The notes: a model not told the origin generated them from the sequence alone. 64,000 nucleotides of DNA from Gemmatales bacterium (GCA_041640595.1 JBEPZY010000001.1:288001-352000); one strand, 5' to 3'; shown: positions 16,386 through 53,195, numbered from the stretch's first letter. Numbers and translations: made by a program.

Positions 16386-16406
16386 TTCAGCGACGGGGGA
16401 AGAAGC

Positions 16407-27481: not shown

Positions 27482-27491
27482 AGGAGAGAGA

Positions 27492-33170: not shown

Positions 33171-33254
33171 TAGGTCGCCATGAGTGATCAACGTGTCGCG
33201 CTAGCCCCAGCCTAATCGCCGGTTCTAAGCATGCTGTTTATATTAGGTTCATAT

Positions 33255-34690: not shown

Positions 34691-34812
34691 GCTGCCGACA
34701 AGTGTCCTTATATTCGAGTAGCAGGTCGCCCAGGCGGGAGGTCGCTCCGAAACGGGGGTGGCCTTCCCCAATTTTTGTTGCTGTACGCTTTTTTGTACTG
34801 GGCGCTCGCTGG

Positions 34813-36633: not shown

Positions 36634-39223
36634 ACTTCAAGTCGGCGATATACCACACGCGCACCGTCTTATCAGCACTCCCCGACACGAAACTGCGGCC
36701 GTCCGGCGTCACCGTTACGCTGGTGACCCGATCTTGGTGGCCAGAGAACCGCCGCACTTCTTTCCCCCTCGCCAAGTCCCACAAACGCACCGTTTTGTCC
36801 TCGCTTCCCGAAACGATGTATTTGCCATCGGGCGTCACCGCGACGCTACTGACCCCGCTCTCGTGCCCCGTGAACCGCCGCACTTCTTCCCCCGTCGCAA
36901 GCTGCCACAAACGCACCGTTTTGTCCTCGCTTCCCGAAACGATGTATTTGCCATCGGGCGTCACCGCGACGCTACTGACCCCGCTCTCGTGCCCCGTGAA
37001 CCGCCGCACTTCTTTCCCCGTCGCCAGGTCCCACAAACGCACCGTTTTGTCCCAGCTTCCCGAAACGACGTATTTGCCATCGGGCGTCACCGCGACGCTA
37101 CTGACCCCGCTCTCGTGCCCCGTGAACCGCCGCACCTCTTGCTCCGTCAACAACAGCGCCCACAAACGCCACAAACGCACGGTTTTGTCGCCGCTTCCCG
37201 AAACGACGCATTTGCCATCGGGCGTCACGGCGACACTCCAGACCGAACCCGCGTGCCCCGTGAACCGCTGCACTTCTTTCCCCGTCGCCAGGTCCCACAA
37301 ACGCACGGTCTGATCCGTGCTTCCCGAAACGACGTATTTGCCATCGGGCGTCACGGCGACGCTCAAGACCGGATTCTGGTGCCCCGTGAAACTGCGGACT
37401 TCCTCGGCACTGGCCAGGTCCCAGACGCGCAGCGTCATGTCCGAACTCCCTGACACTGCATGGCGTCCATCAGGGGTTACCGCAACGCAATTTACGGCGC
37501 GTTCGTGTCCGATCAGTCGCGTGCCTCGAGACTCTTGTAGCGCTAACCACAATAGCCTCTCTGCGTCGGCTAGCCTTCTTTCTGATTCAAGCAGCCTTCT
37601 CTGCATTAGAACCAGCCTTGTCTCTGTTTCATCTAACCTTCGCAGGAGATCGTGAGAAATCTGCTCTGCTTGTAGACGTAATTTGCGGGTAGATTCTAAT
37701 TCCTTAGCCAAGGACAGAACGCGTTCTCTTTCTGCTGCTAGCTGCTTTCGTGTTTCAGCTAATTCAAGAGCTAATTCCCGGCTAGCTTCTAATTCCTTCA
37801 CCAAAGACAGAACGCGTTCTTTCTCTGCCGCTAGCTGCTTTGTGATTTCAGCCGATTCGCGCTCCAATCGAAGAAGACGTTGTTCAGTGTCCCGTCGGTC
37901 CTCCTCCGTCTGCTTCAATTTCTCGTCCAAAGAGTCCAGGGCCGATGCCAGGTCGCGATTGGTCTGAGACAGCTGATGGTTCCTGGTGGCCAGCAGCAGG
38001 GAGAAAGCAACGGTCAAAGTCAGCACGAGAATCATTGACACTGCAGCGGCACCGGCCAGCCTCCCTTGCCGCCGCAACCATCGCGCCAACCGCTGCCCCA
38101 GCGGCTCACGATAAACCGCCACCGGCTCATCCGCCAGCCAGCGTTTTACATCCGCTGCCAGCTGCTCAGCGGTGGCATAGCGCGCCTGCGGGTCGTCCGC
38201 CATCGCCTTGCGGCAAATCGCTTGCAGTGCCGCCGGTATCCACGGCTTCAGCTGCCGCGGTGGTTTAGCCGGCCGGCCCAGACAAAATGGAGGCTGTCCG
38301 GTTAGCAGGTGATACAGTGTCGCTCCCAGGAGAAACACATCGGTACGCTCGTCGGCCGGCTTACCATCCACCTGCTCCGGAGCCATGTAGGCTTCCGTGC
38401 CCAGTTTTGCTCCGAGTCGGGTGTGGTGATCGTCCGCACCGTCGGGCGGCTTGGCCGAATCCGGAAAACCAGCGTCGCCGTCCACCAATTTCCGCCGTGC
38501 TAATCCCCAATCGAGCACAATGGTCTCGCCGAACCGGCCCAGGATGATGTTGTTCGGTTTCAGGTCGCGATGGATGATGCCCCTGCTGTGGGCATACGCC
38601 ACCGTCTGGCACACCGCCACAAACCGCTGCAACAGTTCACGAAATTGCAGTTGCACTTTCGTCCGGCGGAAGTCGCGGACACTCTGGCAGCTTTCGTGCC
38701 AGGCGTGGATGGCCTGGTCGAACCTTTCACCTTCGACATACCGCATCACGTAGTAGAGCCGGCCATCCTGCTGCCCGCGCATCAACACCGGCACCACGCC
38801 GGGATGTTCCAGCAACGCGGTGATTTCCGCTTCCCGCTGGAAACGGGCTGGCAGAGTGGGTGTACGGGCAAACTTGATGGCCACCTTGCGATTGAGGACC
38901 AGGTCGTCGGCCAGGTACACCACTCCCATGCCGCCTTTGCCGATTTTTTTCACGGTGCGATACTGAGCCACCTGCATAACCTTTTCCGGCGGCGGCACCT
39001 CAGGCGGAGGCTCTCTCCCAGCTCCCGGCGGTTGCAGGGAATCTTCCTCGAGCGACGTAAGGGTGTCTTCTTTTTCGGAAGGCGTGGCGGCCTGGCGTGA
39101 CGCCTCCGACTGCTCATTAGGTGGGTTTCCCCCTGCTAACTTTTGCGACTCCGCAGGTGGCTGCGTGGATTGCTGGTCCTGGGGCCTGTGAAACTCACCC
39201 TGGGCTCCCGGTTGCGTAGCCAT
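36632..39223 (-). CDS. Ser/Thr protein kinase - TM - coiled coil - 7 WD40 repeats
   Basis: GKGGMG, VAIK, HRDLKPNN, DWG, YMAPE; GH...VAVTPDG...SGS.D.TVR.W x7. Confidence 0.93.
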   Translation of the reverse strand: MATQPGAQGEFHRPQDQQSTQPPAESQKLAGGNPPNEQSEASRQAATPSEKEDTLTSLEEDSLQPPGAGREPPPEVPPPEKVMQVAQYRTVKKIGKGGMGVVYLADDLVLNRKVAIKFARTPTLPARFQREAEITALLEHPGVVPVLMRGQQDGRLYYVMRYVEGERFDQAIHAWHESCQSVRDFRRTKVQLQFRELLQRFVAVCQTVAYAHSRGIIHRDLKPNNIILGRFGETIVLDWGLARRKLVDGDAGFPDSAKPPDGADDHHTRLGAKLGTEAYMAPEQVDGKPADERTDVFLLGATLYHLLTGQPPFCLGRPAKPPRQLKPWIPAALQAICRKAMADDPQARYATAEQLAADVKRWLADEPVAVYREPLGQRLARWLRRQGRLAGAAAVSMILVLTLTVAFSLLLATRNHQLSQTNRDLASALDSLDEKLKQTEEDRRDTEQRLLRLERESAEITKQLAAEKERVLSLVKELEASRELALELAETRKQLAAERERVLSLAKELESTRKLRLQAEQISHDLLRRLDETETRLVLMQRRLLESERRLADAERLLWLALQESRGTRLIGHERAVNCVAVTPDGRHAVSGSSDMTLRVWDLASAEEVRSFTGHQNPVLSVAVTPDGKYVVSGSTDQTVRLWDLATGKEVQRFTGHAGSVWSVAVTPDGKCVVSGSGDKTVRLWRLWALLLTEQEVRRFTGHESGVSSVAVTPDGKYVVSGSWDKTVRLWDLATGKEVRRFTGHESGVSSVAVTPDGKYIVSGSEDKTVRLWQLATGEEVRRFTGHESGVSSVAVTPDGKYIVSGSEDKTVRLWDLARGKEVRRFSGHQDRVTSVTVTPDGRSFVSGSADKTVRVWYIADLK

Positions 39224-39325
39224 GGTTCAGCCTCCGATGGAGATAACCTCGGCTGATGACCCGTCGCCTGCTACGTTTCGACTGGATTTTTATATACGGG
39301 CCGCCCTTCGGTGCCAGCCTATTGT

Positions 39326-39650
39326 CCACGGTGGGCTGACGCCCACCGCTCCTGGTTGTGTGTTCGCCAGTTGCCGAACAGCCCTTGATTTTCACCGCGC
39401 CGGGACGGTTTCACACACCACGGTGGGCTGACGCCCGCCGCTCCTGGTTGTGTGTTCGCCAGTCGCCGAACGGCCCTTGATTTTCACCGCGCCGGGACGG
39501 TTTCACACACCACGGTGGGTTGACGCCCGCCGCTCCTGGTTGTGTGTTCGCCAGTCGCCGAACGGCCCTTGATTTTCACCGCGCCGGGACGGTTTCACAC
39601 ACCACGGTGGGCTGACGCCCACCGCTCCTGGTTGTGTGTTCGCCAGTCGC
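39326..39650. repeat. 92-bp tandem repeat x3.5 with REP-like hairpin
   Basis: Units at 39326, 39418, 39510, 39602; GGTGGGC-TGAC-GCCCRCC palindrome. Confidence 0.92.
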
Positions 39651-39787
39651 AATTTGCAATCTGACGTTCACACCTGTGGCACTTAGCACAACTGGTCCAG
39701 ATCGAGTCCAGCGTTGCGTAGGACCGATTACAAATTGCCCAGGCACATTGCACTACGACGGCGGGCGGGACCAAAGACAATAACCCC

Positions 39788-40692
39788 ATGGTGCACGACG
39801 TTACAGGACAGCAATGGCCGCTCATCCACGTAGCGAGTAGTAAATGGCGAGTAGAAAGGTAGCCAACTAATCTTTCCGCCACCCAATACCCGTGGCCGAC
39901 CACACGCCGACGACCGCAAAACCCTCAATGGCATCCTCTAGGTGCTCCGTACCGGTTGTGCTTGGGAGGATATGCCCCGCTGTTATGGCAGTCCCATCAC
40001 CTGCTGGCGACGGCTGCGGAAGTGGCAAGAAGAAGGGGTCTGGGAAGGGATTGAGCGGGTGTTGTTAGCGAGCCTGGACGAACAGGGCAGGTTGGCCTGG
40101 CAACGGGCCTTTCTGGACGGCACGTTTGTGGCGGCAAAAAGGGGCGAAGCCGTGGGGCAGGTCAAGCGTGGCCAGGGCAGCAAGGTGATGGTGCTGGTGG
40201 ATGGTCAGGGATTGCTGTTGGGGACTATGGGGGCCAGTGCTCAGGAGGCAGAGGTGCATCTGACGGAAGCTACAGTGGAAACGGTTCGGATATAGCAGCA
40301 GCGCCGGCGCCTGTCTAAGCGAGCACGCGAGTTAATGTAGAAACCTTAGAACTGCGAGTTCGACACTTAGATTCATGCTCAGAAGCGGGTGCGGCAGTTG
40401 GTGGCGGACCGGGCATACGACAGCGATAGGTTGCGGGTTTGGCTTCGTCGGTGAGGGATTCGGCCCTGCATTCCGCGACGGTGAAATCGTCGTCAGTGGG
40501 GACGCTCGCCGGTGTTATCGGGGTATCGGGAGCGGTGGGTAGTGGAGCAACCGTGGTGGCGTTGGCGAAAGATCCGTGGTTGGTGGTATGTTAGGAGAAC
40601 TGGTGGTGCGTTATGAGCGGAAGGTGGAAATGTACCGTGCCTTTGTGCTCATAGCCTTCATTCTCATCTGCCTATGCGCATTTTTGAAATAG
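39788..40692 (+). pseudogene. IS5-family transposase pseudogene
   Basis: DDRKTLNGIL*VLRTGCAW, TCWRRLRKW, DGTFVAAK, ADRAYDSD, VRYER; several stops. Confidence 0.85.
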
Positions 40693-40696
40693 GTTT

Positions 40697-41960
40697 GCTC
40701 TGTCGAAAACATCTTGGCGCGTGGGGCAGGAAGAGTTGGGATGCTCGGTCGTCGGACACGACCACGACAGCTCCCGATGGAACCGCCACGAAGTGGGATT
40801 AGCTACGATGCTCGGTCATAGATGGACCAATCATTGTCGGTCTTTGTTGCAACGGGTCCTCCTGCCCCTTTCGGGGGCACCCAGTCATGGAAGGACCAAT
40901 CATTGTCGGTCTTTGCTGTAACGTCCACACTCATTAGCTAAAATGCTCACCATGGAAGGAACCCATTTGCTCTTGGCTGTAACCAGGATACAACCGGATG
41001 CGGAGAAAATTGCGTCGGACGCAATGACGCATTTGCTCTAAGCTGTAACCAGGATCTAGCTTGATAGCTTCATACGGATCCTTGACTTCCGGCGACGCAT
41101 TTGCTCTAGGCTGTAACTAGGATACACCGCGTCCCTGGCGTGTGATTGTCGAAATGACAAGACGCATTTGCTCTAAGCTGTAATTAGGATGGCCCTGGAA
41201 TTAGCCCAGCAGGTGTTGCCCCCGTATTCGCACCCCAAAAGCCCACACCAATTCACCCAGCCGCAGTTGCTGGCCTGCTTGATTGTGAAAGCCTACCTGC
41301 GACAGAGCTATCGGGGCATCGTCGAACTGTTGGCCCTGTCGGATGGTCTGCGGCGGGTGCGTCCGCAGCCGTTGGTGGCCGACGCGGGCTATGGTGCGGA
41401 ATGCGTGCACGAGTTTTGTCGAGAGCGGTGGCGGGTGAACAGTTGGATACCGTGGCAGCGTCTGGACGGAAAGGGTAAGTGCAATCACCGCCTGCGGCTT
41501 CGGCCAACCAGGCACCCCGCTGGCAGTGTCTGGTCGGAATGGCCAAGTGCAATCACACCGTTGGAGGGCGTGGTCAATGACCCATGTTCCGAGCTGGCAG
41601 CGTCTGACCGAAAAGGGCAAGTGCGAGGCCGCTGGCGTTCCCAGATGGGAGATGCCCAAGGTGTACCGTCAGCGTTGGCACGTGGAATCGTTCCTAAGTG
41701 AGCTGAAGCGAACCACCGGCTCGCAATTGACGGCGCGGCGGTAATGTTAAGCTTGGCAACCAGGCGCTACACTGTCAGCCACAGTTGGGGGCGCGGCGGG
41801 GAAAAAACTGTAGGAGGATGGTCATGTGCAGCGCCGGTGCTATACTGTCAGCCACAGCTGAGGAGGTGGCGGGAGTGGACGTTGAACAATGAAGTGGCAT
41901 TGCGGGTGGCGGCCTACGCCGTTAGTTTGCGCCCACACGCAACTATGTTTTCGACAGAGC
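40697..41960 (+). mobile_element. Decayed IS, copy B, with both terminal inverted repeats
   Basis: Perfect 15-bp IR GCTCTGTCGAAAACA / TGTTTTCGACAGAGC; YSHPKSPHQFTQPQLLACL, ADAGY, QRWHVES; central deletion and several inserts. Confidence 0.88.
40815..41190. CRISPR. CRISPR-like repeat-spacer array at the transposase start of IS copy B
   Basis: 30-bp GACGCATTTGCTCTAAGCTGTAACCAGGAT-type repeats at 40960, 41026, 41094, 41161 (spacers 36, 38, 37 bp) plus a 39-bp pair at 40815/40884. Confidence 0.65.
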
Positions 41961-42030
41961 AAAGCTTGTTCTCTCAAGGAGAGGCGCATATAAAAGGGCC
42001 AAAAGGTAACAACAGAAGAAAGGTGTTCCT

Positions 42031-43053
42031 ATGCGCTCAGAGTCGCCCTTTCGGACCAAGTCTCTTCGGTTACTGGGGCTGGGGATTCTGGTTGCAGTTA
42101 TTGACTGTCTTCTGCTCGTGAGCGCCCTCCGTGAAAGGCATTTCGCTGGCATTGTCCTGGCGCTGCTGGCCAGTCTGGCTGCTGTCGGCCTGGTATGGCT
42201 GCTTTGGAGAGAAACGCGTGCAGGACTGGTTCAGCGTGCAACTTCCGAAAGCAGAGAGAGCCAGAAGACAACTCCAGGTGCCGAAGTATCTTCTCCCTCC
42301 TTGACGTCTGCAGAAGGTCCGGTCCCAGGTCTGGCAAATACTCCGTCTGTCCCCACGGAGCCCGAAGGCTTCGTCGCCGTTCGCACTGCACAAGCTGAAA
42401 GCCCTGCAAGCACTTCCGTTCCTTCCAGGGAACAACCTGAAGCGTATGCCGATCAGCCGAGTCCTGGGGCGGAAAAAGCCTTGCCCACAATCCAACCCGG
42501 TATTCCCCCACTGACGGCCGACCCGCTGGACAATCGCCCCTGGGTAAAACTGGTTGAGGAAGTGGTCGAGCTGTTCGACGAAATAGAAAGCATACACCCG
42601 CGCCTGCATCCCCCGGCACAGGAACTGGCCAAGCACCTGAAAGATAGGCTGGTGGAAATTCTGGAGCGTAATCAGGTAGAAATTCTCCACAAAGGGGAGA
42701 TCGGCGTGCGCTTCAACAGAGCGCGCCACCAGCCAGCGATGCCTCCTGCGGATGCCGAACTCGCCGTGGTTGCGGAGGTGCTGAGTCCGGGCTTCGTTGT
42801 AGGTCGGCGTGTGTTGCGCCGGGCACACGTGCGTCTGGCTTCGGCAGGGGATCTTGAGGCTCCTGTCAAGAGCCAATCATCTCTTGCACCTCCTTCTCAG
42901 CCGGGAACCCGATTTTCTCAGAGTACCTCCGCCGCATCTGGAGGAGGTGCGTTGGAAGGCCAGCCGGTTCCTCCACTTGACCCTGGCAGAGAGCCGCTGT
43001 CACCGAATCCGGAACGAAGTCGTTTTGAGGAGAGGGAACCAAACCCACAATAA
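42031..43053 (+). CDS. Membrane-anchored GrpE-like protein
   Basis: Two TM segments, Pro/Ser linker, then FNRARHQ...EVLSPGF..GRRVLRRAHV resembling the GrpE head. Confidence 0.7.
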   Translation: MRSESPFRTKSLRLLGLGILVAVIDCLLLVSALRERHFAGIVLALLASLAAVGLVWLLWRETRAGLVQRATSESRESQKTTPGAEVSSPSLTSAEGPVPGLANTPSVPTEPEGFVAVRTAQAESPASTSVPSREQPEAYADQPSPGAEKALPTIQPGIPPLTADPLDNRPWVKLVEEVVELFDEIESIHPRLHPPAQELAKHLKDRLVEILERNQVEILHKGEIGVRFNRARHQPAMPPADAELAVVAEVLSPGFVVGRRVLRRAHVRLASAGDLEAPVKSQSSLAPPSQPGTRFSQSTSAASGGGALEGQPVPPLDPGREPLSPNPERSRFEEREPNPQ

Positions 43054-43070
43054 AACACAAGGAGAACATC

Positions 43071-45008
43071 ATGGCCGCTACTGCTGACCTGCTTGCTCAG
43101 ACGGAACGATTGCGTCGTCAGACTCTGGACCTTTTGAGCCAGATGGAGGAACACGGGCAGCGATTGGGACTGCCGCCCTTTCCCGATGTGTTGCAGATGT
43201 GTCGGGAGAAACTGCAAGAAAATATCTATCGCGTCCTGGTTGTTGGCGAGGCCAAGCGCGGCAAAAGTTCCTTCATCAACGCGTTGCTAGGCCGGGACCT
43301 GCTGCCCGTTGATGTGGATGTGGCCACGTGTCAGGTCTTTCGCATTCGCCGGGCAGCACAAGAGGCATACCGCCTGCGATTTGAAGACGACTCGGAGCAA
43401 GTCATCCGTGCCGAAGACCTGCCCCGTTATGGTTCCCAGGTGCTGGCTGACCTAAATGAAATCCCGCGTCTGGATCAGATCATTCGCTGGATTGAGGTGG
43501 ATGTACCTGCGCCATTTCTGCCGCCCAATTTATGGTTGCTGGATACTCCGGGACTGGGCTCGCTGTATGCGTTTCATGCGCGGATCACTTATCGTTTTGT
43601 CCCGGAGTGTGATGGGGTTGTGTATGTGCTCGATTCGCAGGCACCGATCAGCCAGCCAGAGTTGCAGTTTATCGAGGACCTGCTGAAGGTGACGAATCAT
43701 CTGTTTTTCATCCAGACCAAGATAGACCTTTTCGATCAGGATACCTGGCAAAAGATACTGCAGCGCAACGAGGATATTCTGCGACAGCGATTTGGCGACC
43801 AATTGGGCCAGGTGCGCGTGTGGCCGGTTTCTAACCAGTTGTTACGTAAGGCCTCGGAAACTCAGGATGAAGATTATCTTGAGGCCAGCAAATATAAAGA
43901 ACTGTCAGAAGCCTTGCAGTTGTTCTTGTACCGCATCGCCGGTCTGGTCAAGACCAGGGCGACCGCTGCTTTAGGGATAGAGCATCACCGTTCCTGCCAG
44001 CAGGTGTTGCAGCAGCGCCTGGATAACCTGAAGATGGAGTCCAAAGAGAAACAGAAGGAGTTGCACCAGCAGTTGCGCAAACTTCGGGAGCAGATGGAGA
44101 CCGACTGCGGGCCGCATGGCCAGAAGCGTCGTGAATTTCTGGAAAAGGTTCAGCAAGTCTGCAACGCAGGTCGGCAACACATTCATCAAGAATTGCAAAA
44201 AATACTCTCCGATTACCAGCGTAAAGTAGAGCAATTACCTCTGGAGGAAGTCGAAAAAGAGGGATCCACTATCTTCAATGAGATGGTAACGGAAGTCAGT
44301 GATCTTTGGAAACGCACAGTGAGCGACACTCAGCAAAAGCTAGCTCAGCATCTAGGAGAGTTCATCGTTTCCTTGCCTGCGGGGCCCGTACTTTCCACGG
44401 TTGATTCAGCATCTCCTCCAGTGAGGGACACTAATAAGTTTAGTGAGATAATGAGTGATGTCGGTAAAGTGATGAAAGGAGCAGGCATGGGTGCACTAGT
44501 CGGCGCGGCAGCTTTTCTGGGTGCCAATGTGATTCTTGCCACCGGTTTCTTCGCCACTATAGGTGCCTTGATATCAGGACTGCTGGGCATCAAATCTGCT
44601 GCTGCATTTGGGAGTATAGTTGGCGGCCTTGGTAGCCTTTGGAACTTGTTCAAAGGCAAGAAAGCCAAACTCGAAGCGGCAAAACAAGAATTACGAGCAC
44701 GCTTGGACAGGGCATGGAATCAGATTCATTACCATTATCTCGGCCCATCTGGGGCGGTAGAGCAATCTTTCGAGATGTTAAAAAACCAGGCGGAGGAGCA
44801 GATTGATAAACTGGTGCAACAAGAATTGCAGCAGAGAGAGGCTGAGATTCAGCGGTTGGAAAAGGATGCGCAGCTGCAGGAGCGGGCTCGCAGGGAAAGG
44901 GTCCAGGAAGTGCGCCAGCAACTGGCCGATTGGGATAAATTGGGTCAAGAGTTGCAGAATGTCCAGAACGAACTGCACGGACTGGAAAAGATACTGGCCG
45001 CTGCTTGA
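43071..45008 (+). CDS. Bacterial dynamin-like GTPase with membrane paddle
   Basis: GEAKRGKSS, DTPG, TKID; Gly-rich hydrophobic segment and coiled coils. Confidence 0.88.
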   Translation: MAATADLLAQTERLRRQTLDLLSQMEEHGQRLGLPPFPDVLQMCREKLQENIYRVLVVGEAKRGKSSFINALLGRDLLPVDVDVATCQVFRIRRAAQEAYRLRFEDDSEQVIRAEDLPRYGSQVLADLNEIPRLDQIIRWIEVDVPAPFLPPNLWLLDTPGLGSLYAFHARITYRFVPECDGVVYVLDSQAPISQPELQFIEDLLKVTNHLFFIQTKIDLFDQDTWQKILQRNEDILRQRFGDQLGQVRVWPVSNQLLRKASETQDEDYLEASKYKELSEALQLFLYRIAGLVKTRATAALGIEHHRSCQQVLQQRLDNLKMESKEKQKELHQQLRKLREQMETDCGPHGQKRREFLEKVQQVCNAGRQHIHQELQKILSDYQRKVEQLPLEEVEKEGSTIFNEMVTEVSDLWKRTVSDTQQKLAQHLGEFIVSLPAGPVLSTVDSASPPVRDTNKFSEIMSDVGKVMKGAGMGALVGAAAFLGANVILATGFFATIGALISGLLGIKSAAAFGSIVGGLGSLWNLFKGKKAKLEAAKQELRARLDRAWNQIHYHYLGPSGAVEQSFEMLKNQAEEQIDKLVQQELQQREAEIQRLEKDAQLQERARRERVQEVRQQLADWDKLGQELQNVQNELHGLEKILAAA

Positions 45009-45115
45009 AAGGCCCGTGAGATGAAAAACACCCGGTCTCAAAGGAAAAGACCGCGAAAGTAGGACCGTCTTCAGGGCAAAAGAGCGAAGCCTGGTTTCCA
45101 AAGAGGGCTGAGACC

Positions 45116-47296
45116 ATGAAGAAGGAACCTGTCTTGGGAATTGATTTTGGCACGACCTACAGCAGCATGGCGTGGTTTAATCCGCAGACGGGCCGGGCGG
45201 AAGTGCTCCGCAATGCAGAAGGAGAAGAAAAGACGCCATCGGTAGTTTATTATGGGGATAAGGAAGTAGTGGTGGGCAAGGTGGCAGAATACTACGTGGA
45301 GGATCCCCAGGCGTGCAAGCGGGTTCTTCGAGCAGTCAAACGACACTTGGCGGAGGACACCCGGTACGCGGTGGGTTCACGACAGGTTCGGCCGGTGCAA
45401 GCGGCGGCGGAGATTTTGCGGAAGCTGAAGCAGGATGCCGAAGGAGGACATTTTCGCCGGGAGGTGCAGCGGGTGGTGTTGACGCATCCTGCCGTTTTCG
45501 ACGAAGTGGAGAAGGAACGTCTGCGCGAAGCAGCACGGCTGGCCGGTTTTGCGGAGGTGGTGCTGCTGGAGGAACCGGTAGCGGCCGCGCTGGCTTATCT
45601 GGCAGCAGGTGTGGGGCCGGTTGAGCAGGGAATTCTCGTTTATGATCTGGGAGGGGGTACGTTTGATTTGACGCTGGTGGTGCCTGACGAGGGTCCTGCG
45701 GGTTTTCGTGTGGCGTTGCCGCCCAGGGGATCACGTATCGGCGGGGAAGATTTCGACCGTGCGATCTATGATGATTTCGACAATTTCGTGCGGCAGTATG
45801 GAGCTTCTCTTGGGAAAGACGGTTTGAACCTAGCGTTCTTGAAACGATGCCAGAAATATAAGGAGAATCTGTCCGTGGTGGAGGAGCCGGCAGCGCCCCT
45901 GGGATGGTTCTGGAGCGAAGGGCGCGAGTTGATAAGCCGGAGCATGACGCGCCGGGATTTCGAGCGATTAATCAATGCGCATGTTGAGGATACGGTGAAG
46001 CTAACCAGACAGTTGCTTCGAGAGGCAAACAAGAAGGGTCTGCAAGCTAAGCATGTGCTTTTGATCGGGGGGTCGTCGCGGATTCCTTTGATCCAGCGGC
46101 GTCTGAAAGAGGAATTGCAGACGGAGCCATTGGTTTGGGAGCAGCGGGATATTGCAGTGGCTCTGGGAGCAGCGATTTATGGGGCACGCTATGATCAGAA
46201 AACAAATTGCACAAATCCAGCTGCTATCCGGGAACATCGTCTCGATGAGAAAGGCCCATCCCTTGGGGAGTTAGTACAGCGTGCCAGGGACGGGGACGTA
46301 ATCATCATTCCGGCGGGGGACTGGTATCTGCGCCAGGGAGTAATCATAGACAAGCCGTTGGTGTTGCGAGGGGAGGGAAGAGAACATAGCCGGCTGAGGT
46401 CGGAAGCCGAGGGGTATGTGCTGTGTTTTCAGGGGACAGGTCCGTGGCGGTTGGAGGGGTTGACGGTGGAACATGTAGGCAAGAGATGGGCGCATGTGGT
46501 AAAGGTGGAAGGGGGGCAGATCGAGATACGGGATTGTGTCTGCCGGGGCGGGGTGTGGGACGAGTCGAACAGCAGAGGCGGTTTAGGGATATGGCTTCGA
46601 GGTGGCGCACGGGGTGTTATATCAGGGTGTATTTGTGGGCCGAACGGTCTGCATGGGATCGGGGTGAGTGGTCAGGCGCAGGCGCAATTGGAAGCCAACA
46701 CCTGTAACAACAACCAACAATGTGGTATTGTTTACTGTGAATCTGCCGAGGGCACGGCGCGGCAGAATATCTGCCGGCACAATGGCCTGCATGGCATCGG
46801 GGTTCAGGGACAGGCGCAGCCGCACCTGGAGGACAACACCTGCGAGAACAACCAGCAATGCGGCATTTTGTATTCAGATTCTGCCTGGGGCACGGCACGG
46901 TATAATGTCTGCCGGCAGAATGGCTATCATGGCATCGGGGTTCGGAGACACGCGCAGCCCAAATTGGAAAGCAACACCTGCGACTGCAACCAGCGATGCG
47001 GCATTATGTACCTTGAGTCCGCCAGGGGCGTGGCGTGGCACAATATCTGCCGCCAGAATGGCAATCATGGCATCGGGGTTCAGGGTCAGGCACAGCCGCA
47101 ATTGGAAAGCAACGCCTGCGAGAACAACCAGCAAGACGGAATTCGTTACTTCGACTTTGCCGGCGGGCATGCGCGGCAAAACACCTGTTCAGGCAATCGG
47201 CAGTATGGCATCTATGTAGCTTCCACGGCAAAGCCTGTGCTGGACGCCAATAACTGCTACGAAAACCTTAGCAGGAACATTTTTAACGAAGCGTAG
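45116..47296 (+). CDS. Hsp70 ATPase domain fused to a right-handed beta-helix
   Basis: GIDFGTT, EEPVAAA, DLGGGTFD, GGEDFD, GGSSRIP; then repeats N.C..N...GI. Confidence 0.88.
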   Translation: MKKEPVLGIDFGTTYSSMAWFNPQTGRAEVLRNAEGEEKTPSVVYYGDKEVVVGKVAEYYVEDPQACKRVLRAVKRHLAEDTRYAVGSRQVRPVQAAAEILRKLKQDAEGGHFRREVQRVVLTHPAVFDEVEKERLREAARLAGFAEVVLLEEPVAAALAYLAAGVGPVEQGILVYDLGGGTFDLTLVVPDEGPAGFRVALPPRGSRIGGEDFDRAIYDDFDNFVRQYGASLGKDGLNLAFLKRCQKYKENLSVVEEPAAPLGWFWSEGRELISRSMTRRDFERLINAHVEDTVKLTRQLLREANKKGLQAKHVLLIGGSSRIPLIQRRLKEELQTEPLVWEQRDIAVALGAAIYGARYDQKTNCTNPAAIREHRLDEKGPSLGELVQRARDGDVIIIPAGDWYLRQGVIIDKPLVLRGEGREHSRLRSEAEGYVLCFQGTGPWRLEGLTVEHVGKRWAHVVKVEGGQIEIRDCVCRGGVWDESNSRGGLGIWLRGGARGVISGCICGPNGLHGIGVSGQAQAQLEANTCNNNQQCGIVYCESAEGTARQNICRHNGLHGIGVQGQAQPHLEDNTCENNQQCGILYSDSAWGTARYNVCRQNGYHGIGVRRHAQPKLESNTCDCNQRCGIMYLESARGVAWHNICRQNGNHGIGVQGQAQPQLESNACENNQQDGIRYFDFAGGHARQNTCSGNRQYGIYVASTAKPVLDANNCYENLSRNIFNEA

Positions 47297-47413
47297 AACG
47301 GAGAACGGTGCGCTGATATTTGATAGCGCATGTGCCTGGAAAAACTAAGCTCGCAAAGCATCGAGCCCTGCGACGAGGATAACACTTAGTGTGATAAGTC
47401 AAAGGTGATAGAT

Positions 47414-49138
47414 ATGGATAGCTTCCAGAGCCAGCTAGAGAAATTGTTGCGGCGCAGCGCTGAGCAGTTGCGGCAGGTAAGATTGCCGGAGACCCTGGCG
47501 GATTATCCGGACCGTCTGGAAAGACTGGCAGAGCAGGTGTACCACCCCTGTACTCTGGCAGTTGTGGGCCGGGCCAAGGCCGGCAAGAGCACGTTCATCA
47601 ATGCTTTTCTGGAAGACGACCTGGCCAAAGTCGGCGTCACGGAAACGACGGCCACCCTCAACTTCTTTCGCTATGGAAATCCTCCGGACCCAGCACGTCC
47701 CATCCGCTGCTTCTGGCGCAATGGCCAGGATGAGTACGTCGATCGACAATTCCTGGACAGCCTGCAAGGACATGCTCCGGAAATCGTGCAGCGGGCTGCG
47801 CAAATTGATCATCTGGAATATCTCCTGCCCCATCCCAGTCTCAGGGAAGTGACGCTGGTGGATACTCCCGGCACCGAAGCGGCTGTGCTGGAACACCATG
47901 AACAGACCAAAGAGTTCCTCCAGTTGCGCCAGCAACACGCACAGGCCACGCGCCAGTGGGCCGAACGTGCCGATGCCGTGATTTATCTGGTTGGCCCTGT
48001 AGCCCGACTTACCGATCAGCAGTTGCTGGAGGAGTTTACTCAGGCGACCAGCGGGCAGGCACGGGCACTGAACGCCCTGGGAGTGCTGGCCAAAGTAGAT
48101 TTGCAACCGGAATTGCTACAGCGTCGCGAGCAATTGGCCGCCAAGATTGCTCAGCAACTGCGGGACAGTCTAAACACGGTGCTGCCTGTCTCCGCCGGTC
48201 TTCGCCGAGCTCTGGACCGGTTCCAGAAAGACAAGGACTCCTTCCGCAAGCTCCGCCAGCAACTCCAGCAGATTCCCGCCAAACTGCTGAGCAAACTCCT
48301 GGACAGTGAGGAACTTTACAAAAAGGATTATCCGGACTGTCCTGTGAGCGTTGCTGAGCGAATAGGTTTGCGCGGCGATATGCCTTGGGGCGTATTCACA
48401 ACCATCGCTCGTCTGGCCGCCGATGCCACCCTCACTGATGAAGAGGTATTGGAGAAGCTGGAGGAATGGTCTGGCTTTGGCCCCTTGAAAGAAGTGCTGG
48501 AGCAACACTTCTTCCGCCGCAGCAAGCTGCTGCGCTGCTTTAGCATTCTGCGCGAAGTCCGCACCTTGCTGGACGACCTGCGCTACAATTATCTGCCGCA
48601 ATTGCAAAAGAAAGACCAGCAGGACCAAGCCCTGTGCGAGCGTTACCAACTCCTGCTGCGCACCGTCCAGGAGCACGAGGCGGGCGATCTGGCAAGGCGA
48701 CTGCACTGGCCGGAGCGGGAAGTGCGCACGACGGTCAAAGAGTTAGTCGATCTCGTGAACCGCGTGATACCTACCGATCGGGCAGACCTCCTGAGCGCAC
48801 TGCTTCAGGACCTGGACCGGCAATTTAGCGAGCTATACCACAAACTGGAAGAGTACAACGCCGATTTTGAAGGTCTGCTGAAATTGGAAAAGAGACCTGA
48901 GTTCCTGACCGATGGAGAATGCGAGGAATTGCGCCGCTTGTTTGGCTTACACGGCTTAGACCCGGGTACCCGTCTGCCCCCAGATCTGCCGCCAGGGGAG
49001 AAACTGAGATACATACAAAGCCGCCAGGAATACTGGCGTGAAAGGCAGTGGCGGGGTCGGCAACCGGAACTCCAGCAGCTTGCAGAGCTGGCTGAACGGC
49101 GCTACGGCTGGTTGCTGGCCCAGGAGACAGCGCGCTGA
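47414..49138 (+). CDS. Second dynamin-like GTPase
   Basis: GRAKAGKST, DTPG, AKVD, PVSA; alternative GTG start at 47405. Confidence 0.85.
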   Translation: MDSFQSQLEKLLRRSAEQLRQVRLPETLADYPDRLERLAEQVYHPCTLAVVGRAKAGKSTFINAFLEDDLAKVGVTETTATLNFFRYGNPPDPARPIRCFWRNGQDEYVDRQFLDSLQGHAPEIVQRAAQIDHLEYLLPHPSLREVTLVDTPGTEAAVLEHHEQTKEFLQLRQQHAQATRQWAERADAVIYLVGPVARLTDQQLLEEFTQATSGQARALNALGVLAKVDLQPELLQRREQLAAKIAQQLRDSLNTVLPVSAGLRRALDRFQKDKDSFRKLRQQLQQIPAKLLSKLLDSEELYKKDYPDCPVSVAERIGLRGDMPWGVFTTIARLAADATLTDEEVLEKLEEWSGFGPLKEVLEQHFFRRSKLLRCFSILREVRTLLDDLRYNYLPQLQKKDQQDQALCERYQLLLRTVQEHEAGDLARRLHWPEREVRTTVKELVDLVNRVIPTDRADLLSALLQDLDRQFSELYHKLEEYNADFEGLLKLEKRPEFLTDGECEELRRLFGLHGLDPGTRLPPDLPPGEKLRYIQSRQEYWRERQWRGRQPELQQLAELAERRYGWLLAQETAR

Positions 49139-49774
49139 TGGCTCGGCACTGCCTGCTGCGAGCACTCTTCACTTGCAGTGCCAATAACTTCCAGGCCATC
49201 TAACATATCTCGGCGTTTGCTGCCGCAGGAACTCTTCACTTGCGTGGCCTGATTCTTTCCAGCGCACCGGACACCAGCCAACCAATGTTTCGAGCGGAAA
49301 ACCTGTGAGATTCCCCTGCCCAATTAGTTTTTTGCCACAGCTCCAGCGACCATCAGCAATAACCGTTGGCGGCAGAGACTCGCCGCGTAACTGTGGCATG
49401 GGCTGCGCAACTATACCAACTATCAGTGGCAAACATCGGCAACAGTGGCGGGCCTACCCAGTAGTTACCAGGCCGACCCGGTTGACACCGATAAGCATCG
49501 GCGGTGCTGGCAGACCACGTCGGCAACCAGCTTGGCCCGAAACACTCGCCTTTTCGCGGAAACGGGAAAAGCCGGCAGCTGATATGTTTGCATCGGCTAG
49601 CAACTCTTATGCAGCCTTTTGCAGAAACGCAGAGAAACTGGTGCACAACCTGGGAGTGATCAAGACGACCTGCAGCAAGCTAACCGCTCTAATAGTTTTG
49701 GCAACGGCTTCTAACCATATGCGAATCGTCGTGGCAACGAGCCTTGGCGGAACTGTCCAGGTTCGATTCGGACA

Positions 49775-49876
49775 CCGCAATTACACAAATCCGCTCCCGC
49801 AATTATATAAGTCGGCCGCCGCAATTACACAACTCTACCGCCGTGACTATATAGACTAGCCCTGGCAATTATATAT
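49775..49876. repeat. Five iteron-like motifs at 22-bp spacing
   Basis: CCGCAATTAYAYAA-like at 49775, 49797, 49819, 49841, 49863. Confidence 0.7.
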
Positions 49877-50280
49877 ACGATCCGCACCTACCTGCCGCAC
49901 ACATTATGGGATCCCGCTTCTTCTGGCAATCAGAAAAATATAAGAGCGGGACTAAAGTCAGCCAGCTAATTGCTTGTCCAGCACAGTACGGATTTGTGGA
50001 ACGGGACGGTGCAATTTCTGGAGGCCTCGATTATCGTCAAGCATGTAAAGCTCACCTGCCGGGTAATGGTTCAGATGCACCCTGCTGCATTTGCATCCTT
50101 GCAAGTCCACGCAATGAAACAGCAACTGGCGTGCCGTGACGCTGAACTTTATGAGCCTGCTAATTTCTAAGCGAAATAGCCCAGAAAATCAAGGCTGACG
50201 CTTATGCAATAAAAATGAAAATGGGCATGAGCGTGAGCAACGAGGTGTGCTTTTCATGGACCATCCGAATTTAGATACAT

Positions 50281-50344
50281 TGTTACTGGGCGGGGTAGTT
50301 ACTGCACGAGATAGTTGCTCGGCGGGATAGTTACTGGGCAGGAT
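50281..50344. repeat. 16-bp tandem repeat x4
   Basis: AGTTACTGGGCGGGAT-like at 50281, 50297, 50313, 50329. Confidence 0.75.
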
Positions 50345-50483
50345 AGGGCAATGCAATGTCTAAGATTGGTTTCGAAGACGCCATCGTTTAGTCATTGATT
50401 TTCCAGTAAATGCGGGCACAAACGCACCTTGTAATGCGGCAAGAAGTGTGTTATATTAACCGCTCCTAGCCAGAGGCGGTGAC

Positions 50484-50663
50484 ATGCGGACATTGAGGAA
50501 TTGGTTGCGGCAGGGGCGGATTCCTTATCGCAAGGTGGGCCGAGTCGTGCTCATCCCAAAGAAAGCTCTAGAGGACTGGGCCAATAGCCACACGCTTGAA
50601 AATGGGAGCCAGGCAAGGATGTTCTCTGGGGAGTCCGACGGGCATTCGAATAGCAAGCCGTGA
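50484..50663 (+). CDS. Excisionase-like winged HTH, possibly N-truncated
   Basis: 59 aa MRTLRNWLRQGRIPYRKVGRVVLIPKKALEDW...; below the ORF-track cutoff; upstream of the integrase. Confidence 0.7.
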   Translation: MRTLRNWLRQGRIPYRKVGRVVLIPKKALEDWANSHTLENGSQARMFSGESDGHSNSKP

Positions 50664-51075
50664 AAGGGTGACTTGAAGGTAGATGTGGCTCTTTTCAAGA
50701 AAGCCATTCAACTAGGAAAACAATGGTGCTGCAGGGAAGTGCCCGCAGCAGCATCTTATAAACCGGCCTGCGAGGTGAAGAGAATAGGTGGGTCGTGTTT
50801 GGCATACACCGGATGGGGGTATAAGTGCCGCGATATGGTATTAACATGGGAGTCTGGACAAGGTCGCGGTCGGGTTGAGCTGGCGTGTAGTCGGTAGTGC
50901 ATGGGCTGCGTAAGAACAGAGGGGATGTGACACAGGAATCAGTCTTTTGAGGATCAGGATATTTAGGCTTAGAGCTAAGTCGGCTTCAACGTAATGTCGC
51001 ATGGCCGAATGAAAAGGCCGGCTATTCGGGCAGTTGGTGAGAACTAAGTCAGCGGGCTGCAGTAAGGAGTCAAGT

Positions 51076-52545
51076 GTGGCGAGCTTGGTGCGGGAAAGAA
51101 AAGGTGGCTATCGGATAGACTGGCTGGACCAGGAAGGGAAGCGGCATAGTTTGCGGTTGGGTATTGGCAATCGCAAGCTGGCCGAGCAAGTGCTGGCCCA
51201 TGTTGAAACCCTCATTGCTGCCCGCGAGATGAATGTGTCGCTGGACCGGGCAACGCAACTCTGGCTAGCAAGCATCGGGCCGGAGTTGCGAGCTCGACTT
51301 GAACGAGCAGGGTTAGTTGATTCACTGCCGCGAATACCGACATTGGCCGAGTTTGTGCAAGGCTACCTGACCCGGCGCGAACAAGACCTGAAGCCCCGTA
51401 CACTGGACAAACTGCGCGACACGGCCAGGAAACTATGCGAGTTTTTCGGGGAAAATTGTCCGCTGGACAAAATTACTTCGGGTCGGGCTCAGGATTGGGT
51501 GTGCTGGCTGCGCGAACGTGGCTATGCCCCGTACACGATTTACAAGTTCCTCGTGAAAGCTCGTGGCATTTTGCAAGATGCTGTGCAGCGTGAGTTGCTT
51601 GTGAAAAACCCACTGGCGGGTGTCAAGGTGCAGGCAAAACCGGATGAATCCCGCCGAGTGTTCATTACCCGCCAGGAAATTGCTCGCCTGCTGGCCGTGC
51701 TACCGCCGGTGTGGCGTACGGTAGTTGGTCTGGCGCGGTATGCCGGCTTGCGTTGTCCCAGTGAGGTGATGAGTCTGAAGTGGCAGCACATCCGCTGGGA
51801 ATCGGGCCTGATTACCGTGCCGCAACCCAAGCTGGAACATTTGCCGGGCAAGGCCTACCGCGTGGTGCCGCTTTTCCCGGAGGTCCGGGCGATTCTTGAG
51901 GAGGCTCGGAAGTTAGCCCCGGCGGATTCGGAATATGTGGTCTGGGAAGCTCGGCTCCGGGAAAGTGTCGTTACGAGCCGGGGCTGGCAAAACTGCAACC
52001 TGCGGACGGCGTTGTATCGTTACCTGCGGCGTGCAGGGCTGCCCTGCTGGCCGAAGCCGTTTGTCAACATGCGAAGCTCCCGGCAAACTGAACTGGCAGA
52101 GTTTTTCCCGGAGCACGTGGTTGCCGCTTGGCTGGGCAATTCGCCAACAGTGGCCCGTGCACACTACCTGCAAGTTACGGACGCTCATTTTCGCCAGGCC
52201 CAGGAACGAATCACCGCTCTCGAAAGCGAAAGTGGGCACGGCGATAGCAAAGGAAGTAAGCTGACAATTCCGTTTTGCTACTTGCGGACCGAGAGTTTAC
52301 GGACGCAGGCACAGGAAGGTCAAGGACAGACTCACGCGGAAGTAACACCAGAAAACCGTGCAGCAAAATCCGCAGCAATGCCGCAGCAAAATCCGCAGCT
52401 GCAGGAGACGGCAGCCAGCAGCAAACAGCGGAAAAATTCTCAGCAAGTTGCGGCAGATTGGGACATTGCGCCGTCAGGTGCCGCCTGGTGCCTCTTCGCA
52501 CCGGCGATCGCACTACCCCCGGCAGGACTCGAACCTGCAACCTAG
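51076..52545 (+). CDS. Tyrosine recombinase/integrase
   Basis: YAGLRCPSE, NMRSSR, WLGNS...AHY; GTG start after AAGGAG; 3' end overlaps the tRNA/att. Confidence 0.92.
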   Translation: MASLVRERKGGYRIDWLDQEGKRHSLRLGIGNRKLAEQVLAHVETLIAAREMNVSLDRATQLWLASIGPELRARLERAGLVDSLPRIPTLAEFVQGYLTRREQDLKPRTLDKLRDTARKLCEFFGENCPLDKITSGRAQDWVCWLRERGYAPYTIYKFLVKARGILQDAVQRELLVKNPLAGVKVQAKPDESRRVFITRQEIARLLAVLPPVWRTVVGLARYAGLRCPSEVMSLKWQHIRWESGLITVPQPKLEHLPGKAYRVVPLFPEVRAILEEARKLAPADSEYVVWEARLRESVVTSRGWQNCNLRTALYRYLRRAGLPCWPKPFVNMRSSRQTELAEFFPEHVVAAWLGNSPTVARAHYLQVTDAHFRQAQERITALESESGHGDSKGSKLTIPFCYLRTESLRTQAQEGQGQTHAEVTPENRAAKSAAMPQQNPQLQETAASSKQRKNSQQVAADWDIAPSGAAWCLFAPAIALPPAGLEPAT

Positions 52546-52587
52546 GGATTAGAAATCCCTTGCTCTATCCAGTTGAGCTACGGGGGC
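52514..52587 (-). tRNA. tRNA-Arg (anticodon UCU), CCA not encoded
   Basis: GCCCCCG acceptor, TAGCTCAACTGGATAGAGCA D-arm, AGGGA-TT-TCT-AA-TCCCT anticodon arm, GCAGGTTCGAGTCCTGC T-arm. Confidence 0.96.
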
Positions 52588-53195
52588 AATGTGGATGCCT
52601 TCCATCGCGTAGTGCTTGCCCTCTGCGGAGCCCAGGCCGCCAAGACTCTCAGCCGGGACGATGTAGATGCTTCCCATCGCGTAGTACTTGCCGGCCGTCA
52701 GGCGCAAGTCAGCAAGACTCCCTGTCGAGAGGCAAATGCAGATGCATCCGGTCGGCTAATGATAAGCCCTCGCCAGGGGCAGGCCAGCAAGGCTCCCAGT
52801 CGGGGGCGGTGTAGATGTATCCGGTCGCCTAGTGCTTGTCTCCTGCCAAGCCAGCAAGACTCTCAGTCGAGAGGCAATGGAGATATATCCGGTTGCCTAA
52901 TGATAAGCCCTCGCCAGGGGCAGGCCAGCAAGGCTCCCAGTCGGGGGCGGTGTAGATGTATCCGGTCGCCTAGTGCTTGTCTCCTGCCAAGCCAGCAAGA
53001 CTCTCAGTCGAGAGGCAATGGAGATATATCCGGTTGCCTAATGATAAGCCCTCGCCAGGGGCAGGCCAGCAAGGCTCCCAGTCGGGGGCGGTATAGATGT
53101 ATCCGGTCGCCTGGTGCTTGTATCCTGCCAAGCCAAGTCAGGAAGACTGCCAGTCGAGAGGCAATGTAGATGCATCCGCTCGGCTAATGCTTGCT
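52588..53195. repeat. 141-bp tandem repeat x3 built of ~70-bp subunits, with degenerate subunits reaching the tRNA 5' end
   Basis: TAATGATAAGCCCTCGCC... at 52757, 52898, 53039; related CAAGACTC..GGCAATG.AGATG subunits upstream. Confidence 0.88.

Follow-up and report, generated by a model that had tools for sequence, protein, structure and literature searches.

A four-gene Hsp70, GrpE and dynamin-like module on an integrated island of a hot-spring planctomycete: a candidate membrane-associated conflict or envelope-damage response system

Background

Eleos has anti-phage activity and is not known to include an Hsp70-like or GrpE-like gene. The system is named in 10.1101/2022.12.12.520048, and LeoABC is described as a dynamin-like system in which LeoA goes together with LeoBC (PMC4159319). 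In Bacillus subtilis, phage-induced lysis is delayed by DynA, a fusion of two dynamin-like proteins (PMC8844932, PMC12998192). The dynamin-like proteins DLP1 and DLP2 of Campylobacter jejuni form a heterotetramer and are encoded side by side, with the membrane-binding region on one partner (PMC6104087). The present analysis deals with a four-gene set at positions 42031-49138 of a window (the whole stretch of 64,000 nucleotides that was analysed) from Gemmatales bacterium, a hot-spring planctomycete. The set encodes a small GrpE-like protein (mini-GrpE), two dynamin-like proteins, here also called DLP1 and DLP2, and an Hsp70-like protein ending in a beta-helix. The four genes very probably form a real, conserved accessory module. 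The best overall explanation, with a probability of roughly one half, is a mobile and membrane-associated module in which an Hsp70 switch acts on a dynamin pair in a conflict or envelope-damage response.

Hsp70 and GrpE also occur as a theme in the GAP1-N2-type DO-GTPase conflict systems reported by Kaur et al. 2020 (PMC7159879), mostly from actinobacteria and firmicutes. The DO-GTPases have Glu in the Walker B motif and often N-terminal zinc ribbons, and a three-domain GAP1 protein is encoded beside the GTPase (PMC7159879). Jilly et al. 2018 (PMC5827413) described a cyanobacterial 'chaperone group' in which DnaK-domain genes lie beside some dynamin-like genes. In a literature search, an operon of a dynamin pair with Hsp70 and GrpE was found only as these two partial precedents, whose supplements may list related loci, and the same search returned no report linking Hsp70 and dynamin-like proteins to anti-phage function. 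According to a 2026 preprint (10.64898/2026.10.19.760177), HSP70-like domains can also take the STAND position.

Gene organization of the locus

An earlier note, made from the sequence alone, had described four intact and co-oriented genes at this place, and open reading frames (ORFs) with exactly those boundaries were recovered, all of them intact and on the plus strand. Wherever that note could be checked by reading the sequence, that is for domains, anchors and repeats, it was correct on every point. The features of the locus are given below.

42031-43053, plus strand, mini-GrpE (ORF1), 340 residues
43071-45008, plus strand, DLP1 (ORF2), 645 residues
45116-47296, plus strand, Hsp70-like/beta-helix protein (ORF3), 726 residues
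45116-46189, plus strand, Hsp70 ATPase domain, residues 1-358 of the 726-residue protein
46190-47296, plus strand, C-terminal right-handed beta-helix, residues 359-726 of the 726-residue protein
47405-49138, plus strand, DLP2 (ORF4), 577 residues, GTG start

The intergenic gaps ORF1/2, ORF2/3 and ORF3/4 measure 17, 107 and 108 base pairs (bp).

Comparison with described systems

The locus resembles Eleos and LeoABC in having paired dynamin-like GTPases on a mobile island, and in the PADLOC search DLP1 matched both LeoA (2.8e-23, 80.8 bits, residues 155-628) and LeoBC (1.9e-19, 68.2 bits), both along the greater part of the protein. These matches are, however, low-scoring (81 and 68 bits, where the HmaA genes of the window reach 597 and 700), and an Hsp70-like gene stands here between the dynamin genes in 30/33 clusters of related loci. 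DLP2 gave 56 bits against LeoBC, with its best stretch at residues 25-84 only, around the P-loop. With DynA, which has a documented phage effect, the locus has two dynamin-like units in common, which here too would act jointly at the membrane; DynA, in contrast, is a single fused core-genome protein for which the abstracts of its papers describe no dedicated ATPase or exchange factor, whereas the present dynamins are separate genes accompanied by Hsp70-like and mini-GrpE genes on an island. The G-domains gave sequence matches to Nostoc BDLP (2J68) and to the C. jejuni heterotetramer (5OWV_C), and the C. jejuni pair is further alike in its side-by-side dynamin genes and in the membrane-binding region on one partner, which in the present locus is putative (PMC6104087). 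It differs in that an Hsp70-like gene is interposed here and a GrpE-like gene is added, the word 'Hsp70' occurring in PMC6104087 in the reference list only.

The DO-GTPase/GAP1 systems are alike in combining two paralogous TRAFAC GTPases with HSP70 and GrpE, some of the HSP70 proteins being without a peptide-binding domain, as well as in membrane proximity and in a constant core with variable parts. The GTPases of the present locus are, unlike those, of the Dynamin_N type with the G3 motif DTPG and no zinc ribbon, and the word 'dynamin' is missing from PMC7159879. A GAP1-type neighbour was not returned by Pfam, which was searched with no dedicated GAP1 model, and no further gene conserved with the module was seen in the window. 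The 'chaperone group' of Jilly et al. likewise has a DnaK-domain protein encoded beside a bacterial dynamin, although its passages note the adjacency only and the term 'GrpE' does not appear in the main text of PMC5827413. A distant variant with two dynamin genes, the one match among plasmid records, was found on the Anabaena sp. 90 plasmid pANA01. There (locus L225, record positions 60833-72183) the order is an Hsp70 family protein, four hypothetical proteins, a C39 family peptidase, a hypothetical protein, a DLP1-like and a DLP2-like protein. Its Hsp70 gene, unlike that of the window, thus does not lie between the dynamin genes, and a GrpE profile search of the locus detected no GrpE-like gene.

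The canonical DnaK-GrpE pair (1DKG, 4ANI, 8GB3) shares the fold and motifs of the ATPase domain on one side and the C-terminal helical pair with the beta domain on the other. Here, by contrast, the substrate-binding domain is missing, no J-protein is encoded in the module, and the coiled coil of GrpE is replaced by a hairpin and a tether. By analogy, STAND and NLR-like sensors may be compared in their nucleotide switch followed by C-terminal ligand-binding repeats, with the same repeat repertoire (WD40, TPR, LRR). The module is not a member of that family, and the comparison concerns its possible mode of action only; its NTPase fold is another one, its presumed effector, the dynamin pair, is encoded in trans, and it has its own exchange factor. 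What is new is this combination, and the known kinds which it extends are the paired bacterial dynamins and the NTPase-plus-repeat sensors.

Sequence and structure analysis

ORF3 matched Pfam HSP70 (PF00012) with an E value of 2.1e-59 and Beta_helix with 1.1e-35. Of the 599 positions of the HSP70 profile only those up to 373 are reached, therefore the substrate-binding domain is absent. Within the ATPase domain the residues K75, E153, D177, G179, G181, T182, D184 and G209-G210 are invariant in 21 family members, D10 and G12-T13 are nearly invariant (at least 90%) in the same set, and all of these motifs are near-invariant across 120 family members. The domain shares about 35% identity with ordinary DnaK, and in the ESM Atlas it falls only in generic 'Hsp70/MreB' clusters.

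The C-terminal part is built of 23-residue coils in which the motif N-x-C-x-x-N occurs nine times, and its DNA contains a 138-bp tandem unit in 3.5 copies (46651-47134). Asn makes up 8.0% of this part against 1.9% of the ATPase domain. The structure model of residues 359-726 is an all-beta solenoid with a mean predicted local distance difference test (pLDDT) value of 95.5 and a predicted template modelling score of 0.92. The nearest solved folds were mannuronan C5-epimerase AlgE4 (2PYG, 7.5e-10), GH87 glucanase, AlgG, RbmB and phage tailspikes, the tailspike likeness being to Dettilon gp208 (template modelling score 0.65), and the identity to these folds is just 12-16%. By its model, the beta-helix belongs to a fold class that binds or processes polysaccharides. 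The Pfam and fold results together bear out the earlier description of an Hsp70 that keeps its ATPase domain only, with a repetitive beta-helix in the place of the substrate-binding domain.

Both dynamin-like GTPases that had been claimed were recognized as such by Dynamin_N (PF00350) matches, with E values of 1.3e-21 for DLP1 and 1.2e-13 for DLP2, and by their GTPase motifs, which are placed as follows.

DLP1: P-loop G59-S66, DTPG 158-161, T216/D219
DLP2: P-loop G55-S62 (GRAKAGKS), DTPG 153-156

In DLP1, the residues G59, K62, G64, K65, S66, D158-G161, T216 and D219 are invariant in 30/30 aligned DLP1 sequences. Among solved structures DLP1 matched Nostoc BDLP (2J68, 8.5e-23), IniA (6J72, 5.8e-18) and also the Campylobacter pair (5OWV), these sequence matches covering residues 39-326 only, and DLP2 gave a weak match to Cj-DLP2 (5OWV_C, 4.7e-5). 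One hydrophobic region was present in DLP1 at residues 470-517, a putative membrane paddle or hairpin; no hydrophobic segment was found in the DLP2 sequence.

The relation of ORF1 to GrpE was weak in Pfam (PF01025), with a score of 21.4 bits where the cut-off is 25.8 (E 2.2e-4), residues 203-270 lying on profile positions 97-164 of 165. An alignment of 20 homologues revealed a single conserved domain of about 105 residues (166-272) after highly variable N-termini, and the profile built from these homologues matched solved GrpE structures (4ANI 5.2e-8, 8GB3 1.5e-4, 3A6M 1.4e-3). The AlphaFold model of residues 166-272 consists of two helices and a beta domain with block-mean pLDDT of 86-97, mostly 94-97. 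In a Foldseek search of the PDB with this protein the top 11 matches were all GrpE or GrpEL1, among them chains solved in complex with DnaK or mortalin, and the next match had an E value of 0.5. The layout of the protein comprises two N-terminal hydrophobic helices (residues 10-61), a disordered linker (about 77-165), the GrpE fold (166-272) and a low-complexity tail. The hydrophobic stretches are at residues 10-35 and 36-61, and the AlphaFold model places the N-terminal helices at residues 6-32 and 38-76, followed by disorder at 77-165. The long N-terminal coiled-coil helix of the GrpE dimer, a feature of family membership, is absent. Because of the profile matches, the fold model and the Foldseek matches, mini-GrpE is thus taken as a GrpE relative with a membrane hairpin, in which the model indicates that the long coiled coil was lost and the hairpin with its disordered tether gained. 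As modelled, it keeps the helical pair and the beta domain by which GrpE contacts Hsp70. The membrane-anchored GrpE-like gene of the earlier note is thereby confirmed. In three related loci (L210:1157-2491, L180:1160-1948 and L170:1484-2191), one to several 'A-W-A-D..L...E' repeats replace the membrane helices of mini-GrpE; the repeat may resemble TerB-like domains.

Conservation of the gene set

Related loci were collected by a metagenome scan with family-specific peptide patterns, which gave 76 loci; after exclusion of L143, which is identical to the window, and addition of the genome locus L219, 76 loci (L144-L219) were again at hand. Neighbours were searched in all six frames, so that long antisense ORFs hide no genes, and were counted where the contig leaves room. 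The ATPase domain matched with E < 1e-30 in 73/76 loci. DLP1 was directly upstream on the same strand in 61/65 testable loci and DLP2 downstream in 48/54. An additional scan of genome contigs with the ATPase-domain alignment returned 80 loci, which were canonical DnaK (33-38% identity), since one of the peptide patterns fits DnaK, and these were discarded. Near-identical contigs were collapsed at 90% ATPase-domain identity, and the resulting 50 clusters gave the following counts.

DLP1 upstream: 41/43 testable clusters
DLP2 downstream: 33/37 testable clusters
DLP1 and DLP2 both present with the Hsp70-like gene between them: 30/33 testable clusters
mini-GrpE, by the profile from the 20-homologue alignment, with enough flank on both sides: 11/13 clusters
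mini-GrpE, all clusters: 23/50 (15 upstream of DLP1, 8 downstream of DLP2)

The four genes are therefore kept together across relatives, with the order DLP1, Hsp70-like gene, DLP2 retained and mini-GrpE on either side, in the neighbourhood check asked for by the earlier note; a lack of joint conservation, which that note had named as refuting its reading, was not observed. The exceptions L206, L213 and L215/L216 have ATPase domains among the least similar and may represent another subfamily. Against this background, fortuitous adjacency, or a set of decaying island passengers with no joint function, is already very unlikely. Repeats and an insertion sequence (IS) fragment just 5' of the operon, together with a lone DLP2 beside an IS66 transposase in L220, would fit such an origin, but the four reading frames are intact, the same order recurs in 30 of the 33 testable clusters, the catalytic motifs are conserved, and the sequences are present in RNA libraries.

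Fusions were seen as well. The ATPase domain is joined to a full DLP1-like protein in P0120 (E 1.8e-109), to a DLP2-like protein in P0177 and to an AIG1-type GTPase in P0059. Because the domain is fused to either dynamin, direct physical coupling between Hsp70 and the dynamins is argued, and a physical coupling of the Hsp70/GrpE cycle to the dynamin pair is reasonably likely. Two ATPase domains can also occur together: L165, L176 and L190 each carry two distinct ATPase-domain genes one after the other, and in genome G657 a 1031-residue protein (L222:10301-13396, minus strand) with two Hsp70 ATPase domains in tandem lies between DLP1 and DLP2.

Hsc70 acts as an uncoating ATPase on clathrin. In the same manner the present Hsp70-like protein may be an assembly or disassembly factor of dynamin polymers, its C-terminal domain serving for localisation or as an adaptor. 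The fusions to DLP1 or DLP2, the dedicated exchange factor, which implies repeated ATPase cycling, and the tandem or double ATPase domains of L165, L176, L190 and L222 are in accordance with this idea. It is nevertheless quite improbable, as the canonical client grip of Hsp70 is missing with the substrate-binding domain, and localisation alone would hardly account for so many kinds of C-terminal ligand-binding repeats.

In 18 loci (for example L155:1164-2216, L222:15483-16610, L221:5851-6861 and L212:630-1742) the gene directly 5' of DLP1 encodes a fifth conserved protein, about 340-375 residues long. Weak similarity of this protein to Peptidase_C39_2 or C39-like peptidases was seen in L192 and L212, and its L154 and L219 versions are joined to a Ser/Thr kinase. 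This C39-like protein is absent from the window.

Variation of the C-terminal domain

The C-terminal domains were surveyed in 44 of the 62 non-identical ATPase-domain proteins from the loci, truncated ones being omitted.

WD40: 10 of 44 proteins
TPR: 4 of 44
FGE-sulfatase: 2 of 44
beta-helix: 2 of 44
DUF4190: 2 of 44
PP-binding: 1 of 44
DUF697: 1 of 44
C-terminal part without Pfam domain: 19 of 44
no C-terminal extension (411-414 residues): 3 of 44

The wider ATPase-domain family adds LRR, RDD, zinc ribbons and TM2. The dynamin partners remain constant while the type of C-terminal domain varies from one relative to another. On a tree built from 42 ATPase domains, 26 of which were labelled, 8 changes of domain type were needed against a minimum of 7, while shuffled labels averaged 15.2, and because of this each C-terminal type is considered to mark a clade. 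In this tree the window ATPase domain joins L147 and L205 with support 95, beside the TPR forms. A variable C-terminal domain had been expected for the Hsp70, and this stands in so far as the types differ between clades around constant partners; the domains nevertheless follow the ATPase-domain tree, and no rapid swapping was seen.

Identities to four relatives within the beta-helix clade revealed that the repeats change more quickly there than the ATPase domain does.

P0005: ATPase domain 91%, repeats 67% identity
P0013: ATPase domain 79%, repeats 54% identity
P0014: ATPase domain 80%, repeats 57% identity
P0012: ATPase domain 93%, repeats 79% identity

The coil number also varies in this clade, with protein lengths of 689-1172 residues. 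Similar attachments are found on kinases. A 1164-residue Ser/Thr kinase encoded in the same genome (L223:1862-5356, contig C6) bears beta-helix repeats of the same type, P0024, which is 66% identical to the window protein over 40% of its length (the beta-helix half), is counted among the kinase attachments, and kinases with FGE-sulfatase adjoin the module in two genomes.

Mobility and distribution

The module lies within an element bounded by the features below.

20112-20134, left 23-bp exact direct repeat, att-like boundary
51034-52545, plus strand, tyrosine integrase abutting the tRNA gene (Phage_int_SAM_5 1e-8; Phage_integrase 9.6e-6, below the Pfam cut-off)
52512-52534, right 23-bp direct repeat, equal to the 3' end of tRNA-Arg
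52513-52588, minus strand, tRNA-Arg(TCT)

As the tRNA-Arg 3' repeat is found at both ends and an integrase inside, positions 20112-52534 are regarded as a 32.4-kb integrated element; the flanks of the two repeat copies are unrelated. Its cargo includes one Hma system, a TPR gene, a kinase-WD40 gene, an IS fragment and the four-gene module.

In three genomes of the same genus (87, 93 and 78% complete) neither the ATPase domain nor DLP1 was found, and with the window region 33001-53000 these genomes share only repeat-type DNA. DLP2 was present (E <= 1e-30, the three best candidates per genome being scored) in 5/400 other genomes of the class, belonging to three families, and in 0/8 of the window's own family. 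The ATPase domain at E <= 1e-65 was detected in 0/400 other genomes phylum-wide with the four best candidates per genome scored, a count that shows rarity only; four of the genomes holding DLP2 do contain members of the ATPase-domain family. A core operon, syntenic in relatives, is therefore not what the three congeners and the 5/400 class genomes reveal. The module is accessory, horizontally mobile and self-contained.

In a search of 1.84 billion representatives, DLP2 relatives (E <= 1e-30) formed 255 clusters at 50% identity; at 90% identity the family comes to 422 clusters. The named relatives are from Gemmataceae, Pirellulaceae and Thermogutta, and some ATPase-domain relatives are from Chromatiales and Sumerlaeia.

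The stretch is present in hot-spring and microbial-mat metagenomes (20/24 listed runs). Contigs of the RNA library X13 gave depth in 30/30 bins of 40300-50300, with long contigs over the four genes at about 97-99% identity, and they bridge the GrpE/DLP1 junction (42605-44137) and the Hsp70/DLP2 junction (47192-47799). Runs X17 and X18 had depth in 23/30 and 12/30 bins, their uncovered parts being uninformative. The X13 contigs give a weak hint that the module is expressed, as DNA is possible in such libraries and a contig over two genes is no proof of a single transcript. A scan for promoters and terminators was uninformative, the 5 and 11 sites found being close to the 5.3 and 10.0 that shuffled sequence would give.

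Upstream of the operon, the ORFs at 41189-41701 and 41744-42121 were considered as further members and rejected, as they lie in multi-copy repeat DNA and have no counterparts in related loci; they are probably not genes. Neither these two nor the ORF at 49305-49859 had a counterpart among 79 related loci. A 92-bp tandem repeat is located at 39326-39650 (3.5 copies, 97% matches) and has dozens of copies of about 75% identity genome-wide. A second multi-copy element lies just 5' of the operon (41452-41961); contigs C3, C8 and C2 hold further copies of it at 88-90%, as does the window at 33400-33929. Depth of RNA and DNA contigs is raised several-fold over the multi-copy repeats 5' of the operon.

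Other features of the island and its surroundings are the Hma genes and two gene groups. The Hma genes matched PADLOC HmaA/HmaB/HmaC with E values from 1e-210 to about 1e-53, HmaA reaching 597 and 700 bits.

21634-32545, plus strand, Hma system on the island and outside the module (HmaA, HmaB in two ORFs, HmaC)
9275-19031, second Hma system just outside the left repeat
35230-39223, minus strand, on the island, Ser/Thr kinase with WD40 propeller (863 residues), then TPR protein (464 residues)
3907-8005, minus strand, DUF2760 gene (166 residues, 4e-48), then an unrelated second Hsp70-like gene (612 residues, HSP70 4e-19), then AMP-binding enzyme (588 residues)

The two Hma systems stand in tandem. 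HmaB of the island copy is divided between two ORFs, 25702-27393 and 28623-29903, which are separated by about 1.2 kb. The genes at 3907-8005 look like another non-canonical Hsp70 cluster.

Proposed mechanism and role

In the proposed mechanism the Hsp70 ATPase domain would work as a nucleotide-driven switch and not as a chaperone, a reading adopted because both a client-binding domain and a J-protein partner are missing. The C-terminal beta-helix would bind a ligand or target and supply the specificity. As the exchange factor is tethered to the membrane, the exchange of ADP to ATP would be confined there. The switch would then act directly on a heterocomplex of DLP1 and DLP2 that tethers, seals or deforms the cytoplasmic membrane, in which DLP1 would be the membrane-inserting partner as in the Campylobacter pair (PMC6104087); for membrane sealing DynA is the precedent (PMC8844932). 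By analogy with DynA, Eleos and the sensor-switch-effector layout of NLR-like proteins, the role is most likely a response to conflict (anti-phage or anti-mobile-element) or to envelope damage.

An immune function of the module is tentative and stands somewhat short of even odds. The claimed location in a defence island holds for this window, where two Hma systems are recognized by PADLOC HmaA/B/C. Beside L147, among the nearest beta-helix relatives, a DruE-like helicase and HEC-01A/B are encoded, and its near twin L205 has ORFs of matching sizes. In L203 (12856-17278) a CHAT-TPR protein (1040 residues) and a TIR-domain protein (404 residues) follow directly 3' of DLP2 in the same orientation. 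SIR2 is a neighbour in L183, and caspase-like and IetA-like proteins are neighbours in L198 and L212. The weak LeoA and LeoBC matches also count on the side of defence.

Several results weigh against the conflict side of the proposed role. The enrichment near defence genes that the earlier note had suggested as a check was not seen, PADLOC matches at E <= 1e-10 being obtained for 14/140 flanking proteins and for 10/117 background proteins. Of the 175 flanking ORFs that reach 140 residues, 140 made up the flank set, and the background set comprised 117 of the 124 ORFs in ten 18-kb regions that were placed arbitrarily in the same genome; the control is crude, with one genome and hidden Markov model matches rather than called systems. 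The matches in both sets were mostly generic, i.e. kinases, ABC ATPases, methyltransferases and sigma-54 activators, and many flanks contained housekeeping or signalling genes (rRNA adenine dimethylase, HAD hydrolase, alcohol dehydrogenase, GGDEF-EAL, extracytoplasmic function (ECF) sigma factors). No recognizable toxin or nuclease effector was found in the module. The idea that close relatives rapidly exchange their C-terminal domains, as is typical of an arms race, was considered and rejected on the ATPase-domain tree. The beta-helix, WD40 and FGE-sulfatase domains are carried by Ser/Thr kinases also and may thus be general signalling or scaffold domains. The viral sources give no phage link either way: in viral contigs 50 loci matched, all of them ordinary or viral Hsp70 (23-40% identity) and none a family member (best 40% over a 57-residue fragment), and phage records gave no DLP2 match.

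An alternative is a module for general envelope stress, membrane repair or remodelling with no immune role, in which the Hsp70-like ATPase and its exchange factor would regulate or recycle the dynamin pair. Ser/Thr kinases and ECF sigma factors would supply the input, and the dynamin pair would repair or reshape the cytoplasmic membrane, as proposed for DynA, IniA and Cj-DLP1/2. Ser/Thr kinases with sensor-type domains, some accompanied by ECF sigma factors, are indeed encoded 5' of the module, both in the window and in the loci L154, L165, L166, L219, L221 and L222. The fusion of the fifth component to a kinase in L154 and L219, the lack of an excess of PADLOC matches in the flanks and the published membrane-surveillance roles of bacterial dynamins (PMC6104087, PMC6715688, PMC8844932) point in the same direction. 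Kinases are, however, common here (5/117 background ORFs, two of them being fragments of one gene), so that their adjacency may be chance, and the patchy spread (5/400 class genomes, not found in three congeners), together with the position on an integrative island here, is unusual for basic maintenance. A purely repair-type module is somewhat unlikely.

Within the preferred reading of a switch-driven conflict or envelope-damage response, a more specific immune scheme may be formulated. It supposes an immune sensor built on an Hsp70 ATPase in place of a STAND NTPase, in which the repeats would recognize an invader or damage ligand, the tethered mini-GrpE would confine exchange, and the ATP-loaded switch would license sealing or rupture by DLP1/DLP2. 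In this full detail the scheme is unlikely. If true, it would be the first Hsp70/GrpE cycle to serve as a signalling switch driving dynamins in prokaryotic immunity, and the WD40, TPR, FGE-sulfatase and other forms would be sensor subfamilies.

Conclusion

How the widespread bacterial dynamins are activated is largely unknown, and the module offers a compact set of regulators for this process, namely an Hsp70-type ATPase and a tethered exchange factor, with fusions that point to contact. The family, with 255 clusters at 50% identity and at least 8 domain architectures, is also a source of constructs for biochemistry. If the module serves in repair, it would show for the first time by what logic a bacterial dynamin pair is regulated. 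If it is immune, it would represent a new sensor-switch-effector design in prokaryotic defence, with Hsp70 as the signalling switch.

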